A DNA stretch of 35,158 bases from positions 64,001-99,158 of IMG/VR virus record IMGVR_UViG_3300000176_000003. One strand, 5' to 3'. The DNA comes from a virus. Taxonomy: Duplodnaviria; Heunggongvirae; Uroviricota; Caudoviricetes. A program made the position numbers and the translations under genes. Positions within the stretch are counted from its first letter, which is position 1. Each line of letters begins with the position of its first letter. Of the stretch, positions 1-6,026 are shown piece after piece. The notes beneath the pieces are model-generated. The model did no database searches, was not told where the DNA came from, and saw nothing but the letters and a program-made list of their open reading frames with translations.

Positions 1-2
1 CG

Positions 3-326
3 AAAGTCGTATGCGTGCTTTGTCAATCATCGATGAAGGAACTTCACTCACATTTACTGAGGAAGCATAATATGACTGTAACTGAGTATAAAGCACAATT
101 TCCGGGGAACGAAACTCGTTGTCAATCACTCATCAAAGCACAAAAGATTATAGAATTTGATGGAACGTATTGGCATAATGAACAAGTTGCAAATCCAACT
201 GGGGAAAAAGAAAGAGACGAACAAATACTATTTTCAGGATACATGCTTCTACACGTATCAGAATTTGAGTACAAGAAAAACCGAGAGAAGGTATTGGAAG
301 AATGCATAAAATTTCTGATACAGTAG
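3..326 (+). CDS. Vsr-like/PD-(D/E)XK (EDxHD-type) homing endonuclease, 5'-partial and probably internally deleted, lying between halves of terL split intein 1
   Basis: The frame is open to the window edge (KVVCVLC...SHLLRKH, Zn-finger-like). It has IIEFDGTYWH...RDEQI..GY.LLHVSE motifs, and its 3' end overlaps the IntC start by 25 nt. Confidence 0.7.
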   Translation, partial: KVVCVLCQSSMKELHSHLLRKHNMTVTEYKAQFPGNETRCQSLIKAQKIIEFDGTYWHNEQVANPTGEKERDEQILFSGYMLLHVSEFEYKKNREKVLEECIKFLIQ

Positions 327-673
327 AACGAAAATTCATAGATAGTGTAGATATTGATGAATATGAAATCTGGACAGATTCTGGGTGGCAAGATATATCT
401 GCTATTCATAAAACTGTGGAATATGAACGTTGGATTATTAAAACAGAACGTGGGTTATATTTAGAATGTGCAGATAAGCACATTATTTTCAATGACAAAA
501 TGGAAGAAATTTTTATTGAAAATTGTATTCCACATAATACAAAGATTACAACAGAATATGGTTCAGATTTAGTAATAGAATGTTATAAGACTGATATTAT
601 AGAACCTATGTTTGATATTACCGTTGATAGCGAAGACCATAGATTTTACTCTAATGGCATTCTAAGCCACAAC
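302..673 (+). mobile_element. Split intein 1, C-half (124 aa), +1 Thr; N-half lies upstream of the window
   Basis: Block B LECADKH, block F MFDITVD and block G YSNGILSHN|T are present. There is no block A Cys1 in this ORF. Confidence 0.88.
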
Positions 674-1303
674 ACAACCACAGTGGCCGCGCTTCTTCTA
701 TGGTATATTCTTTTTCAAGATAGTTTCTCTATTGCCATTCTAGCAAATAAAGAAAGACAGTCAAGAGAAATTCTATCTCGTATTCAGCTTGCCTTTGAGC
801 ATTTACCTAAGTGGTTGCAACAGGGGGTTATCCAATGGAATAAAGGTAATATTGAATTAGAAAATGGTTCGAAGATTCTATCATCTTCAACATCATCATC
901 CGCTATTCGTGGGGGTTCGTTTAACCTAATTTATCTTGATGAATTTGCGTTCGTTCCAAATAATCTACAAGAAGAATTCTTCGCCTCAGTATATCCTACA
1001 ATTTCGTCTGGTCAATCCTCTAAGGTATTGATTACATCTACTCCAAACGGAATGAATATGTTCTATAAGATTTGGACAGATTCTGAAGAGGGAAGAAACC
1101 GATATCAAAGAGTTTCTGTACATTGGTCTGATGTTCCTGGTCGGGACGATGTCTGGAAAGACGAAACCATATCCAACACATCAGAACGCCAATTCGATCA
1201 AGAATTTAATTGTTTTTCCTCTGAAACTCTTGTTTATATAAACAATCAAGAACAAACCATAGGAGATTTATACGATGAGCTTATCAAAGAAAGCATTAAC
1301 TAA
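302..1303 (+). CDS. gp17: Terminase large subunit, middle fragment: IntC-1 + ATPase extein + IntN-2
   Basis: The extein begins TTTVAALLLW (right after the Walker A GK) and contains Walker B LIYLDEFAF and ITSTPNG. It ends QEFN followed by a Cys-initiated intein N-half. Confidence 0.93.
   Translation: MHKISDTVERKFIDSVDIDEYEIWTDSGWQDISAIHKTVEYERWIIKTERGLYLECADKHIIFNDKMEEIFIENCIPHNTKITTEYGSDLVIECYKTDIIEPMFDITVDSEDHRFYSNGILSHNTTTVAALLLWYILFQDSFSIAILANKERQSREILSRIQLAFEHLPKWLQQGVIQWNKGNIELENGSKILSSSTSSSAIRGGSFNLIYLDEFAFVPNNLQEEFFASVYPTISSGQSSKVLITSTPNGMNMFYKIWTDSEEGRNRYQRVSVHWSDVPGRDDVWKDETISNTSERQFDQEFNCFSSETLVYINNQEQTIGDLYDELIKESIN
1211..1300 (+). mobile_element. Split intein 2, N-half (30 aa, CFSSETLVYINNQEQTIGDLYDELIKESIN)
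   Basis: A block A-like CF..ET.V...I.DLY follows QEFN directly and is followed by TAA. Confidence 0.88.
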
Positions 1304-1580
1304 AATTATTACAAAAAGTGAGCTTGAATATCTTTATTTTGATAAATTAATGACTCTTGACGAAATTGGCAGACATTATGGATATATTGACAGACAGCCA
1401 ATTATGAGACTGTTCAAAAAACATAACATACAATCTAGAACAAAATCAGAAAATGCAAAACTTATTAATACCAATACCGATTTACCAAAATATATTGTTG
1501 AAAAGTTTTTAAAAGAAGATGATTATATCAAAAATCCAGAAAAAGTAGTAGAAGAATGTCTAAACTTCCTGAAACAGTAG
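1275..1580 (+). pseudogene. Homing endonuclease remnant: HTH domain plus last ~20 aa of a Vsr-like nuclease, catalytic core absent
   Basis: The N-terminal HTH resembles the repeats in 13051..14445. The C-terminus EDDYIKNPEKVVEECLNFLKQ matches EFEYKKNREKVLEECIKFLIQ of 3..326. No IEFDG.YWH motif. Confidence 0.7.
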
Positions 1581-1903
1581 TGTTAAATAAAAAGAATTTA
1601 AAAATTCTTACGCCAAATGGATATGAAACGTTTCTTGGTGTAAACAAAATCACAAAACCCCAATATGTTCATTTAAAATTTTCAAATGGAAAAGAACTTA
1701 AGTGTTCTGAAGATCATCCAATATTAACTATTGATGGTATAGTAAAAGCTAAAAATTTAGACAAAAAAACAGAAATCTCCACTAAAAACGGAGGTTGTTT
1801 TGTCGTATCTAAAAGAAACATAAAAAAACAAATTTTTCTTTATGATATTGTAAATTCTGGAAAAGACCATTTATATTACAGTAATGATATAGTTTCTCAT
1901 AAT
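1556..1903 (+). mobile_element. Split intein 2, C-half (116 aa), +1 Cys
   Basis: Block B LKCSEDHP, block F LYDIVN and block G YSNDIVSHN|C are present. The QEFx|CEFL site matches my recollection of AceL-/GOS-TerL atypical split inteins. Confidence 0.9.
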
Positions 1904-3835
1904 TGTGAGTTCTTAGGCTCTTCTAATACACTAATTGATGGAAAAAAACTTCAACAATTGACATATAGAACCCCACTATTTACTTCGGGTGGTGTAGATG
2001 TCTATGAGAACCCAGAGAAAAATAAAAAGTATATTACAGTAGTAGATACTTCTCGTGGTGTAGATATCGATTATTCTGCATTTATTGTCTTTGATGTAAC
2101 ACAAGTTCCATATAATATCGTAGCCAAATTTAGAGCTAATGATATCTCTCCATTACTTTACCCAAATATTATTCATCAAGTATCAACACATTACAATAAT
2201 GCATTAGCTCTTATAGAAACTAATGATATTGGACAACAAGTCGCAGATATTCTACATATGGACTTAGAATATGATGGTGTTATTGTAACACAAACCAAAG
2301 GTAGAGCCGGTCAAAAAATTGGTGGTGGATTTGGTTCTGGTGGAGGAAAATCTAAACCACAGTTTGGTGTTAGAACAACAAGGCAAGTAAAAAGAATTGG
2401 TTGTGGTAACTTTAAGACTCTAGTAGAGAGCGATAAACTCATTGTTAATGATTATGATCTTCTATATGAGATGGCAAGATTTATTGAAAATAAAGCCTCA
2501 TATGAAGCAGAAGAGGGTCATCATGATGACCTCGTAATGTGCTGTATTCATGGGTCTAATATGATTGAAACTGAGGATGGCCAAAAAACCATGCGATGGG
2601 TTGTTGAAAATAAGTATACCGGAAAAGTACTATCCTTAAATGCAGCGGGAGAATTTGAATGGAAATCTGTAATTGGCCATTCAGCTAAAGAGAATTCTGG
2701 AAAAAATAAAAAGACCTGGATTACATTAGGAGAAGCTGCCTCAGGAAGAAAGCGACTTATTTGTACTACAGATCATAAATGCGCTACAGTAAGTGATATA
2801 TTCAATCCAGAAATTGAATATTTAGAAGCCGACAAATTAGATGGAAAATATATTGTCAAATTTCCTAATACAAAAAAACATGGATTTCAAACTTTAAACC
2901 CAAGTTATAACAAAGATCAAGTTTCTGTTATATTGGGTATACAATTGGGTGATGGACATATTAACAGAAAGGGGAAATTTTCAACTGCTCATGGCGAAAA
3001 ACAAAATGAGTATTCTCGGTATATACAAAGTATATTGGGAGGAAACTTAACGTACAATAAAAAGAACCAATCTCGATTAGAATTTAATACGACAGAACAA
3101 ACACACAAATTGCGTGAGTTGATGTATATTGACGGGAAAAAAACTATAAAAAACATCTATAAGATGATAGACGAAATTAGTTTAGCTTTTTGGTATATGG
3201 ATGACGGACATTTAAAATTATCAAAAGGTTGCATAAATTATTCTGTAGAACTTTGTACCGATTCATTTTCATACGAAGATCATTTATTATTAAAAGAAGT
3301 TTTGTTTGAAAAATTCAATATAAATTCTAGTATAATAAACATAAAAAAATCTCCTATGCAATATAGACTAAGAATAGGAACTGAAAGTAGTAAAACCTTT
3401 TTTGATTTAATCGCTCCTTATGTATGTAAGAATATGGAATATAAAATTCCAGAAAATTATAGAACAATAGAATTAAAACCTATAAACAATTCTTATTTGG
3501 ATTATAGTATTGTAAAGGCAAATGTTTTTTATAGAAATCAAATGGGGCTGGAAAGCAAATTGTATGATATTGAAGTTGAGGGCAACCATAACTTTGTTGT
3601 TAACAACACTTTGGTTCATAATTGTGTATTGTTTGCGTGGCTTGTTAACCAATCATATTTTAAAGAATTGACCGATACTGATGTTAGAAGCAATTTAGTT
3701 CAAGATAATAATGCATTATTGGATGATGATATGCTTCCTTTTGGAATGATGGATTTTGGAGATGACGAACATGCTGAATGGAAAGCTGATCCGTTTTATG
3801 ACTTAGACTTTGGGCCACATAAAGATTATTTCTAA
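1556..3835 (+). CDS. gp17: Terminase large subunit, C-terminal fragment: IntC-2 + nuclease domain containing a cis intein
   Basis: The extein runs CEFLGSSNTLI...VDTSRG...IETNDIG...HDDLVMC|CVLFAW, giving the RNase H-like terminase nuclease motifs. Confidence 0.93.
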   Translation: MSKLPETVVLNKKNLKILTPNGYETFLGVNKITKPQYVHLKFSNGKELKCSEDHPILTIDGIVKAKNLDKKTEISTKNGGCFVVSKRNIKKQIFLYDIVNSGKDHLYYSNDIVSHNCEFLGSSNTLIDGKKLQQLTYRTPLFTSGGVDVYENPEKNKKYITVVDTSRGVDIDYSAFIVFDVTQVPYNIVAKFRANDISPLLYPNIIHQVSTHYNNALALIETNDIGQQVADILHMDLEYDGVIVTQTKGRAGQKIGGGFGSGGGKSKPQFGVRTTRQVKRIGCGNFKTLVESDKLIVNDYDLLYEMARFIENKASYEAEEGHHDDLVMCCIHGSNMIETEDGQKTMRWVVENKYTGKVLSLNAAGEFEWKSVIGHSAKENSGKNKKTWITLGEAASGRKRLICTTDHKCATVSDIFNPEIEYLEADKLDGKYIVKFPNTKKHGFQTLNPSYNKDQVSVILGIQLGDGHINRKGKFSTAHGEKQNEYSRYIQSILGGNLTYNKKNQSRLEFNTTEQTHKLRELMYIDGKKTIKNIYKMIDEISLAFWYMDDGHLKLSKGCINYSVELCTDSFSYEDHLLLKEVLFEKFNINSSIINIKKSPMQYRLRIGTESSKTFFDLIAPYVCKNMEYKIPENYRTIELKPINNSYLDYSIVKANVFYRNQMGLESKLYDIEVEGNHNFVVNNTLVHNCVLFAWLVNQSYFKELTDTDVRSNLVQDNNALLDDDMLPFGMMDFGDDEHAEWKADPFYDLDFGPHKDYF
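2543..3622 (+). mobile_element. Cis-splicing intein (360 aa) with LAGLIDADG endonuclease
   Basis: It starts CIHG and contains block B CTTDH, LAGLIDADG motifs LGIQLGDGH and LAFWYMDDG, block F LYDIEV and VHN|C. Confidence 0.92.
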
Positions 3836-3846
3836 GATTTGTTTTT

Positions 3847-3854
3847 TATAAATA
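3847..3854 (+). promoter_or_regulatory. T4-type late promoter
   Basis: Exact TATAAATA upstream of the AAGGAG RBS of gp18. Confidence 0.8.
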
Positions 3855-3899
3855 ATATCGAGATAAGATTATTTAGTTTCTTACATAAAGGAGAGAGAA

Positions 3900-6026
3900 A
3901 TGGCAATTCAAGTCAGCCCAGGCGTTAATATTAGCGAAATTGATCTAACAACAGTAGTTCCAGCAGTATCTACCACAACCGGCGCGTTAGCTGGTATTTT
4001 TGCTTGGGGTCCAGCTAATGTAAGAACATTAGTAAATTCTGAAGTCAATCTTACATCAATTTTTGGCAATCCAACAGATTCAAACTACGAAACATTCTTT
4101 ACAGCAGCAAACTTCCTATCATATGGCAATAGCTTATATGTAGTGCGTTCTGTTGAATCTGGAAGTTCTGTACCAGCAAATAATGCTTATAACGCATTTG
4201 CGAATACAGCATCTGCCGCAAACGTAGTTGTTCTAAACTCAGACGATTTTAACAATCAAAGCGCATCTCTATCATCAAGTATTGCTTATCTAGCAAAGTA
4301 TCCAGGCGCTCTAGGAAATAGCTTAAAGATTTCTGTCTGCGATAGTGTAAACGCATTCTCCCAAATAGTATCAGTAGCTACTGTAAACTCAGCAGCTTCA
4401 AATTCAGCAACATCATTTAATATTTCTGTTGTTGCGGGAGCAAACTCTGCTACAGTTACATTAACTTCAAACGGTGTTTCTGGTACTGCAAATGCTGGTC
4501 TTCAAGCTCTATCAAACTTTATTACTAATGGTGATATCATTACTATTGGAAATACTACAATTGGGACTCAAACTGTTAAGGTTACAGGATATACCGTAAG
4601 TGCCAATATTGAAGTTGCTGGTTCAGGAGCTAATGCTTTCACACAATACGCAACATTAAATCTTGCTGATCCAATTATCCTACCATACTCAGGGACTCTA
4701 ACTCAAGCATCAACTACTTCATATTGGGAATATTACAATAAAGTTAGTGCAGCCCCAACAACTTCACATTATCTAGCAGTTAAGGGTCTAACTGCTGTCG
4801 ATACACTCCACGTAGTTGTAGTAGACCAAAATGGTGCATTTACCGGTAAGCCAGGAACAATTCTTGAAGTATTCGAGGCTCTATCTAGAGCAACCGATGC
4901 TAAGACAGATCAAGGTGCCACAAATTATTATAAAACAGTATTGAATAATAATTCAAATTACATTTGGGCTGTATCTGATCGATCAGGTGCTGCATCGGCT
5001 CTTTCAACTGCAGTAACTTCATCAACAAACCCAAGTCCATTTACACAAACATTTACAAATGGTAATGATGGGCTTTCTGAAAGCACATGTTCTCTATCAA
5101 CTATTACTAATGGATACGATTTCTTTAAGTCTTCTCAAGACGTAACGGTTTCTCTAGTATTGGCTGGTAAAGCTCGTGGTGTTACAGCGGAAAGCACAAC
5201 ACCTTCTGGAAGTGGTACAAGTTATGCAACAATCGCTAACTACATCATTGGAAACATTGCAAACTATCGTAAAGATTGCGTTGCATTCATTTCCCCAGCT
5301 AAGGCTGATGCTGTGGTTCAACAAGCAGGCGGTGATGCTACCACAAATGTAATCAACTTCCTTGGAACTCTAGCTACTGCATCATCATACGCAGTAATGG
5401 ATTCTGGATATAAGTATCAGTATGATAAGTATAATGATAAGTACCGTTGGGTTCCTCTAAATGGTGATATTGCTGGTACATGCGTTCGTACAGACTTCAA
5501 CAATGATCCTTGGTGGTCACCCGCCGGTTTCTCTCGTGGGCAAATCAACAATGTAATCAAGCTTGCTTATAATCCAAACCAAACACAGCGTGATGCTCTA
5601 TATAAGGCTGGTGTAAATCCAGTTGTCACATTCCCAGGACAAGGAACAATCCTTTATGGTGATAAGACTCTAATTGGGCGTCCATCTGCATTTGATCGTA
5701 TCAATGTTCGTAGATTGTTCCTAACAGTAGAAAAAGCAATTTCTATTGCTGCTCAAAGTTCACTATTCGAATTTAATGATGATTTCACAAGAGCACAATT
5801 CGTAAATCTAATCACACCATATCTTCGTGATGTACAAGGGCGTAGAGGAATTACTGCATTCAAAGTTGTTTGTGATGCAACAAATAATACACAACAAGTT
5901 ATCGATTCTAATCAGTTTGTTGGAGACATCTATATCCAACCAGCACGTTCGATTAACTTCATCCAACTAAACTTTGTTGCAGTTAGAACTGGTGTTGACT
6001 TTACTGAAATTGTTGCGTCAATTTAA
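3900..6026 (+). CDS. gp18: Tail sheath protein
   Basis: N-terminal SPGV.I.EIDLT and C-terminal PWWSPAG..RG, FDRINVRRLF and INFIQLNFVAVRTG motifs. Confidence 0.97.
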   Translation: MAIQVSPGVNISEIDLTTVVPAVSTTTGALAGIFAWGPANVRTLVNSEVNLTSIFGNPTDSNYETFFTAANFLSYGNSLYVVRSVESGSSVPANNAYNAFANTASAANVVVLNSDDFNNQSASLSSSIAYLAKYPGALGNSLKISVCDSVNAFSQIVSVATVNSAASNSATSFNISVVAGANSATVTLTSNGVSGTANAGLQALSNFITNGDIITIGNTTIGTQTVKVTGYTVSANIEVAGSGANAFTQYATLNLADPIILPYSGTLTQASTTSYWEYYNKVSAAPTTSHYLAVKGLTAVDTLHVVVVDQNGAFTGKPGTILEVFEALSRATDAKTDQGATNYYKTVLNNNSNYIWAVSDRSGAASALSTAVTSSTNPSPFTQTFTNGNDGLSESTCSLSTITNGYDFFKSSQDVTVSLVLAGKARGVTAESTTPSGSGTSYATIANYIIGNIANYRKDCVAFISPAKADAVVQQAGGDATTNVINFLGTLATASSYAVMDSGYKYQYDKYNDKYRWVPLNGDIAGTCVRTDFNNDPWWSPAGFSRGQINNVIKLAYNPNQTQRDALYKAGVNPVVTFPGQGTILYGDKTLIGRPSAFDRINVRRLFLTVEKAISIAAQSSLFEFNDDFTRAQFVNLITPYLRDVQGRRGITAFKVVCDATNNTQQVIDSNQFVGDIYIQPARSINFIQLNFVAVRTGVDFTEIVASI

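Follow-up and report, generated by a model that had tools for sequence, protein, structure and literature searches.

A T4-like phage terminase gene broken twice at split inteins and interrupted by a third intein

Introduction

How can a phage obtain its packaging motor from a gene that is broken at two places and interrupted at a third? This question is raised by the gene for the large terminase subunit (TerL) at the beginning of a 35,158-nucleotide (nt) stretch of viral DNA, which is called the window below (G000:C1:64001-99158, from IMG/VR record IMGVR_UViG_3300000176_000003). The parent is a linear virus record of 99 kb, 58% complete according to CheckV. Its gene order (neck genes gp13/14/15, small terminase, terminase, sheath gp18, and onward) and its Pfam matches mark the source as an uncultured T4-like myovirus. 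Here, TerL is encoded by three collinear open reading frames (ORFs) on the same strand, and the halves of split inteins stand flush at both breaks. We are fairly confident in the view that a single TerL gene of the T4 gene 17 type has been invaded three times, that its three products are joined by protein trans-splicing, and that a contiguous cis-intein is excised from the last of them. Two of these invasions would be fractured-gene elements, each made of a short N-terminal intein half (IntN), a Vsr-like endonuclease gene in another frame and a long C-terminal intein half (IntC), while the third would be an ordinary LAGLIDADG intein.

The features of the locus are collected in Table 1. The DNA upstream of the window was taken as contig L003, the window coordinate being the L003 coordinate minus 8000. 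In peptides, a slash marks a splice junction.

Table 1. Pieces of the terminase gene, inteins and endonuclease genes, in window coordinates (FSE, free-standing endonuclease gene; aa, amino acids).
Feature	Position	Strand	Length (aa)	Description
TerL fragment 1	-352..70 (G000:C1:63648-64070; L003 7648-8070)	+	140	extein E1 and IntN-1; stop 68-70
FSE1	-12..326	+	112	C2H2 zinc finger and short DUF559/Vsr-like core (IIEFDGTYWH)
TerL fragment 2 ORF	302..1303	+	333	IntC-1, E2, IntN-2
IntC-1	302..673	+	124	N-terminus of fragment 2; block B ECADKH, block F MFDITVD, block G ILSHN; +1 is the Walker A Thr
Extein E2	674..1210	+	179	ATPase core from Walker A Thr to ...QEFN, equivalent to T4 gp17 167-353; Pfam Terminase_6N, E 1e-19
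IntN-2	1211..1303	+	30	CFSSETLVYINNQEQTIGDLYDELIKESIN (CFSSETLV...) at 1211-1300, then stop; C-terminus of fragment 2
FSE2	1275..1580	+	101	degenerate endonuclease gene, no family match
TerL fragment 3 ORF	1556..3835	+	759	IntC-2, E3a, cis-intein, E3b
IntC-2	1556..1903	+	116	N-terminus of fragment 3; block B KCSEDH, YDIV, block G IVSHN; +1 Cys
Extein E3a	1904..2542	+	213	RNaseH-like nuclease domain up to ...HHDDLVMC; Pfam match of E3 Terminase_6C, E 1e-11
Cis-intein	2543..3622	+	360	contiguous class-1 intein with LAGLIDADG homing-endonuclease domain; C1 (CIHGSNM), block B TTDH, LGIQLGDGH, FWYMDDGH, end TLVHN/C; Pfam LAGLIDADG_2 E 7e-28, Intein_splicing E 6e-15 in two stretches
Extein E3b	3623..3835	+	70	CVLFAWLVNQ..., then stop; C-terminal tail of TerL

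Gene pieces and splice junctions

An earlier, sequence-only reading had described the ORFs 302..1303 and 1556..3835 as terminase pieces that carry intein halves, and all features described there are present. It had also predicted a first fragment with RQxGK followed by the Cys or Ser of an IntN, and such a fragment, with RQVGK and Cys, was found just upstream of the window (-352..70). In this fragment, the extein E1 (87 aa) forms the TerL N-terminus and ends with ...AKMPRQVGK, after which the chain continues with CFSLNTTVKIRNKK... The part past E1 consists of IntN-1 (CFSLNTTVKIRNKKTLIEETITVGELY), which begins with CFSLNT directly after RQVGK, and of a 26-aa tail that is read through the start of the endonuclease gene.

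For the placement of the junctions, the locus was cut into 11 parts, which were placed by tblastn on 80 related viral contigs. In about 65 of these, E1, E2, E3a and E3b abut in one frame with nothing between them, which speaks against a chance arrangement, and the predicted splice junctions are therefore exact. The junction peptides that had been proposed (GK/TTT, QEFN/CEFL and LVMC/CVLF) agree with the contiguous protein of the intein-free relative L010, which reads RQVGK-TTTV, QEFE-CDFL and LVMC-CVLF. Splicing the exteins in silico gives a protein of 549 aa that is collinear with T4 gp17 from end to end, with 38% identity over 518 positions. On the T4 protein, site a lies between K166 and T167 in the Walker A motif SRQLGK/T, and site b corresponds to T353/A354, where the Terminase_6N match stops. 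Site c, which is occupied by the cis-intein, follows S546, four residues past the nuclease residue D542. Walker A is restored only once fragments 1 and 2 are joined, and removal of the cis-intein restores DDLVMC-CVLFAWL as it is found in L010 and in the relative L008 (IMGVR_UViG_3300003375_000180). The nearest TerL of cultured phages, which is uninterrupted, is that of T4-like cyanophages with 68% identity over E2.

Since metagenomic contigs can carry indels, the breaks might in principle have arisen as errors of assembly or sequencing in a gene that is really contiguous and contains inteins, but nothing specific was found that would point to this, and we regard it as scarcely credible. The independent contig L089, a Logan assembly of run SRR4029405, shows 0 mismatches to window positions 1-3900, and its five gene calls agree as well. 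In addition, the TerL frame contains 7 stops between the intein halves at the first break and 12 at the second, and each gap holds a separate ORF whose homologues are endonuclease genes that occupy this place in other contigs. The identical middle protein occurs on 4 contigs, the longest of 156 kb, with JGI, ENA and Logan as the sources on record. Splicing at the RNA level was considered as well and was rejected, as neither a group I or II intron nor a credible Rfam match was found in L003 7000-12000.

Inteins and the route to a continuous terminase

Both split inteins are divided between blocks A and B, with 30 aa in IntN-2 and 116 aa in IntC-2, and with an IntN-1 core of approximately 27-34 aa (plus the read-through tail) and 124 aa in IntC-1. 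Judged by its sequence, IntC-2 clearly belongs with the atypically split terminase inteins of the AceL/GOS/Cat-TerL family, as it matches CatC, the engineered consensus of AceL-TerL and GOS-TerL (PDB 6DSL_B), with an E value of 1.2e-20 over residues 9-115. The corresponding match of IntC-1 has an E value of 0.0023, and intein 1 is best called a distant paralogue of this family, alike in architecture and not a member by sequence. Its atypical split point is the same. The two inteins can be aligned along their length with 29% identity over the whole intein. In the IntN halves, 11 of 24 aligned residues are identical, and both halves follow the pattern CFS..T.V.I.N...(V/I)G(E/D)LY, whereas the IntC halves are identical at 34 of 114 residues (30%).

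The catalytic positions are intact in all three inteins (C1, ECADKH, FDITVD and SHN/T in intein 1; C1, KCSEDH, YDIV and SHN/C in intein 2). A set of 30 homologous middle fragments with 47-62% identity shows how strictly these positions are kept: C56, A57, D58, H60, D105, S122, H123 and N124 of IntC-1 are invariant. The +1 residue of intein 1 is Thr in 21 of the 30 and Ser in the other 9, as it must be Thr or Ser to satisfy the Walker A motif. IntN-2 starts with Cys in 17 and with Ser in 13 of the 30. In the allele of contig L004 this gives a Ser1/Cys+1 pair, a rare combination that has been described for GOS-TerL (PMC11766414).

This conservation bears on the possibility that the three polypeptides simply assemble without covalent ligation, and that the intein halves serve as docking modules that do not splice. 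Fragmented phage enzymes that work in this way are known: the NrdA of phage Aeh1, split by the mobE endonuclease, functions from two chains (PMC2677866, PMC3045599). A docking module alone, however, would not require that the splicing residues (Cys or Ser at position 1, the block B His, the block F Asp, the terminal His-Asn and the Thr, Ser or Cys at +1) be invariant or only conservatively varied in 30 homologues. Moreover, site a lies inside the P-loop, between its Lys and Thr, where an unspliced hedgehog/intein (HINT) domain would occupy the ATP-binding site. We consider a purely non-covalent assembly improbable, although the complex model described next speaks for docking and is silent on chemistry.

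A complex prediction with IntC-1 (fragment 2, residues 1-136) and IntN-1 (fragment 1, residues 76-125) reached a score of 0.78, while the best of three controls had 0.01; the mark used for this score is attained by 51 of 78 solved complexes and by 2 of 108 mismatched pairs. The runs share at least 77% of their contacts, the predicted local distance difference test (pLDDT) value of the partner is at least 74, and the modelled interface takes in Cys1 with the residues next to it as well as blocks B and F and the terminal SHN. The docking score may nevertheless reflect likeness to the solved structure 6DSL rather than binding by this particular copy. In an AlphaFold2 model of fragment 2 that was based on 30 homologues (mean pLDDT 77.9, predicted template modelling score 0.45), the IntN-2 tail forms a hairpin and a helix with pLDDT 81-84.

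From these sequences we infer the following course of events. IntN-1 on the 140-aa fragment 1 would insert into the HINT fold that IntC-1 on fragment 2 leaves incomplete, and IntN-2 at the C-terminus of fragment 2 would likewise pair with IntC-2 on fragment 3. Both pairs would then carry out class-1 trans-splicing, with Cys1/Thr+1 in the first and Cys1/Cys+1 in the second, and the cis-intein would excise itself, so that one 549-aa TerL with a restored P-loop results. The sequence-only reading had asked for three splicing events on three gene products. The anatomy and the junctions fit this, and the splicing itself is probable in view of the conserved active sites and the docking model.

A further question is whether the two split inteins keep apart. 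It has to be considered that splicing does occur but that the paralogous inteins are not orthogonal. A considerable part of the products would then be dead ends, either a cyclised ATPase domain (from IntN-2 and IntC-1 of the same chain) or an E1-E3 fusion that skips the ATPase, and correct TerL would be obtained by kinetic preference or by excess synthesis. The middle fragment has indeed the IntC...IntN topology that favours cyclisation, which is used for engineered cyclisation in split-intein circular ligation of peptides and proteins (SICLOPPS). The IntN halves are similar, including the GELY or GDLY segment that touches IntC-1 in the model, and the IntN fragments of GOS-TerL and AceL-TerL are interchangeable (PMC11766414). 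On the other hand, the IntC halves are just 30% identical, and a conserved extra N-terminal segment of IntC-1 (ERKFIDS, with K11 nearly invariant and F12 invariant), which is absent from IntC-2, contacts IntN-1 in the model. The three-piece state also lasts through a whole clade of diverged phages, which suggests that such losses are tolerable or absent. We regard substantial cross-reaction as rather unlikely.

The cis-intein has a single relative in the viral contigs, at L094:1168-2280 (IMGVR_UViG_3300045806_000171), which is 50% identical and also resides in a TerL. By alignment it is inserted one residue further on (DDLVMGL/C... instead of DDLVMC/C...), and this TerL is otherwise uninterrupted over the available parts.

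Endonuclease genes and the mobile element

Both gaps in the TerL gene hold an endonuclease gene that has been reduced. FSE1 scores 28.6 bits for ROS_MUCR, which is above the cut-off, and 19.5 bits for DUF559, just below the cut-off of 20.6. The latter is passed by full-length homologues at the same positions, with 34.2 bits in L004 (384 aa) and 27.8 bits in L090 (366 aa; L090 is a contig in GenBank assembly GCA_902729585.1). Of the 384-aa L004 homologue, FSE2 has retained the helix-turn-helix-like part at the N-terminus and the tail at the C-terminus (KVVEECLNFLKQ), while the DUF559 nuclease core is deleted, which makes it a deletion remnant. FSE1 has shrunk to 112 aa. When the PDB was searched with the sequence of the full-length L004 endonuclease, no useful solved relative came up. 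The decay of the endonuclease after fixation belongs to the usual life cycle of homing elements and leaves splicing unaffected, and the reduction of FSE1 and FSE2 fits this expectation.

The same reduction could also be read as a sign that the whole gene is decaying, so that we would be looking at a non-functional terminase of a defective phage, or at one whose role is covered by a second terminase from the 42% of the genome that is unsequenced. The 58% completeness of the record leaves room for the latter, and the loss of the nuclease core from FSE2 together with the strong reduction of FSE1 does indicate ongoing decay within the element. The exteins and the intein active sites, however, are intact and free of frameshifts or stops, and E2 is 68% identical to cyanophage TerL. 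In addition, the layout is kept in many diverged lineages and the identical gene is found on the 4 contigs mentioned above. Within the 99-kb record, only 1 Terminase_6N match is present. We think that decay or a backup is very improbable.

FSE1 and FSE2 each lie in another frame than TerL and overlap both of their neighbours. The ATG of FSE1 is located within the GELY codons of IntN-1 and that of FSE2 within the GDLY codons of IntN-2, each preceded by a purine-rich stretch, AGGCG at site a (-30..20) and AGGAG at site b (1255..1290). At their other end, the last 25 nt of each endonuclease gene overlap the start of the following IntC (285..335 and 1539..1589), and this module of endonuclease stop and IntC start is identical at 36 of 51 nt between the two sites. 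We take the two site elements to be paralogous copies of one mobile unit, because the ATG placement, the purine stretch and the stop/IntC module match at both breaks. In the 6 kb scanned, the T4-type late-promoter motif TATAAATA occurs on the coding strand only at -883, before the small terminase, and at 3847, before gene 18; all five ORFs are therefore probably expressed from one late transcript. A scan for sigma-70-like internal promoters of the endonuclease genes gave background values, with 24 found against 27 expected.

The relative L008 shows a different arrangement of the element at site a. At L008:2717-5701, the TerL frame stays open, with 0 stops in 323 codons, across a 296-codon Vsr-like endonuclease gene that sits in another frame between IntN-1 and IntC-1, and the outcome is one ORF of 994 codons. 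Comparable endonuclease genes have 39-68 stops in the TerL frame, and none of 20000 synonymous-codon shuffles was stop-free (mean 20). The pattern suggests a dual-coding overlap under selection, with a cis-encoded intein whose linker is overprinted on the endonuclease gene. The protein P0002 (478 aa, ENA) has the same site-a intein as L008 in contiguous form and without the endonuclease, and it is still split at site b. Its short linker keeps the peptide SMQDLQSRDER, which is the TerL-frame reading of the 5' end of the endonuclease gene, and P0002 appears to be derived from an L008-like state by an in-frame deletion.

Distribution among phages

The three-piece layout is widespread in environmental phages and is not peculiar to this one. 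Relatives with both splits, for which the sequence-only reading had called, do exist. L004-L007 have both splits with larger endonuclease genes and without the cis-intein (the middle fragment is 72% identical), and L090, a contig of 209 kb, has fragments of 123, 356 and 389 aa with endonuclease genes of 312 and 366 aa between them. Further cases come from about 30 protein clusters: among the best 120 clusters in a search of 5.8 billion proteins, 34 were classed as middle fragments running from IntC-1 to IntN-2 (a few truncated calls), 23 have a split at site a alone and 6 at site b alone, and 40 are uninterrupted. A scan of viral contigs with the single IntC-1 sequence gave only 5 distant loci, and the protein search was far more informative.

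When the layouts are mapped on a tree built from the ATPase extein, a minimum of 12 changes of the three-piece label on well-supported branches is required. The window protein stands among intein-free relatives, and one clade of 17 rows contains 16 that are three-piece. There are also pairs of identical exteins of which one has the site-b element and the other lacks it (P0041/P0054 and P0074/P0105). The changes on the tree and these pairs show that the elements move, while the three-piece state can also be stably inherited. The related loci represent all stages of a fractured gene, and they do so at two sites of one gene: the empty site, the contiguous mini-intein, and the split intein with a full, a decayed or no endonuclease.

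Relatives of IntC-1 are also found in the TerL of 307 GenBank phage records, mostly of Ackermannviridae (Salmonella, Klebsiella and Dickeya phages) and also of Campylobacter phages. Vibrio phage Kuja (MN718199, Ackermannviridae) has a contiguous 173-aa mini-intein at the Walker A K/T position with 41% identity to IntC-1. Vibrio phage VP-1 (MH363700:74807-78149, here L092; Ackermannviridae) combines a contiguous 179-aa intein at site a (36% identity to IntC-1) with a split site b, at which an in-frame fusion joins IntN-2 to a GIY-YIG nuclease. As Kuja and VP-1 have it, the intein family at the Walker A site is carried by the TerL of culturable phages.

Several observations on these and other loci may be added. 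The second coding sequence (CDS) of VP-1 (locus 4139) has its annotated start after block B of the IntC, which is probably too far downstream. Only some of the records with IntC-1 relatives annotate the intein (for example that of Klebsiella phage Magnus), and several T4-like coliphages have IntC-2-like matches that span two annotated terminase CDSs. At site a, L035:1786-2745 carries a contiguous intein of about 320 aa that starts with Ala. At site b, L037 and L041 have split inteins with an HNH-type endonuclease gene, and L039 and L040 have the same intein without an endonuclease gene, the ORFs of L039 being just 5 nt apart. Gene callers name such pieces "hypothetical protein" or truncated terminase, and genomes with this layout can consequently seem to be without an intact packaging enzyme.

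Strength of the trans-splicing interpretation

Some points weigh against the interpretation that three products of a single TerL gene are trans-spliced. An intact second TerL could lie elsewhere in the genome, since the record is 58% complete. Among the matches inspected, there was no cultured phage in which both sites are split, and the likeness of IntC-1 to any characterised split intein is weak. Finally, with IntN halves alike at 11 of 24 residues and IntC halves that are 30% identical, cross-pairing may take place, by which the middle fragment would be cyclised or skipped. On the other side, the anatomy of the locus and its exact junctions are established, the catalytic residues are intact and conserved, and the layout recurs in other phages. 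We hold the trans-splicing interpretation to be quite likely.

A farther-reaching proposal is one of obligate natural tandem trans-splicing. According to it, the essential motor would be obtained only after two paralogous atypically split inteins have joined three gene products in order, and orthogonality between them would have evolved. The split intein at Walker A would be an uncharacterised natural partner to AceL/GOS-TerL, and the three-piece state would be stable in whole clades. We lean towards this proposal, with some reserve. If the pieces are ligated as inferred, the locus would be a natural counterpart of three-segment ligation on an essential enzyme that is kept in many phage lineages. 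It would also offer ready-made, co-evolved split intein pairs with a short IntN, and the orthogonality between close paralogues is directly testable with them.

Comparison with known systems

AceL-, GOS- and Cat-TerL are characterised single split inteins (PMC11766414; PDB 6DSL). The split inteins described here resemble them in the short IntN (25-37 aa in the known ones), the long IntC with block B (104-115 aa) and the TerL host, and intein 2 also in the Cys at +1. Unlike these single inteins, the family member in the present locus shares its gene with another split intein that precedes it, and its IntN-2 is located on a polypeptide that starts with the IntC of another intein. For the intein at site a, with its position in Walker A, Thr or Ser at +1 and a 124-aa IntC, no characterised split example was found.

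The closest gene layout is that of the fractured genes of Dassa et al. (2009), among which one gp17-like terminase locus comes from Lake Gatun; the IntC there has 122 residues, and the endonucleases are Vsr-like (PMC2677866). The order of host gene, IntN, free-standing endonuclease gene, IntC and host remainder on one strand in T4-like phages is the same, and so is the Vsr-like (DUF559) endonuclease family. Those loci, however, are fractured in two by a single split intein and are mostly known from short read assemblies, whereas two fractures and a cis-intein are present here. Furthermore, the endonuclease genes of the present locus overlap both intein halves, while a spacer lies between them in the loci of Dassa et al. 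Among culturable phages, Kuja and VP-1 have the same intein family at Walker A K/T, and VP-1 needs two splicing events, but their site-a intein is contiguous (173 and 179 aa), which leaves TerL in one or two pieces instead of three.

A combination of one split intein with contiguous inteins in one essential protein is said to have been described by Liu and Yang in 2003 for the DnaE of Trichodesmium erythraeum. Only one split, at the canonical point, is reported for this protein, which is thus encoded as two gene products, and the halves are not separated by an endonuclease gene.

Inteins in the P-loop of TerL, between Lys and Thr, have been studied in mycobacteriophages by Kelley et al. (2016), who argued that splicing is needed for the active site and for the pentamer (PMC5050341). 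The present locus shares the point of insertion, which separates the invariant Lys of Walker A from the nucleophilic Thr, and by analogy their argument that splicing creates the active site and the pentamer would apply here as well. The mycobacteriophage inteins, in contrast, are contiguous, belong to terminases of the terminase_1 type and are all found in the ATPase domain, whereas here the P-loop intein is split and another intein resides in the nuclease domain.

In the part of the literature that was covered, no description was found of a natural gene split twice by split inteins or of a natural three-piece protein made by tandem trans-splicing. Tandem trans-splicing, or three-segment ligation, is an established engineering method (PMC7210297, PMC12707363, PMC7090010). 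Its constructs share with our locus a middle segment that has an N-terminal IntC and a C-terminal IntN, and the use of two split inteins that must be orthogonal. They are built in the laboratory from unrelated inteins, whereas the arrangement described here is natural, employs two paralogous atypically split inteins and concerns an essential enzyme. Every part of this locus is of a known kind, and what seems new is the twice-fractured and presumably thrice-spliced layout.

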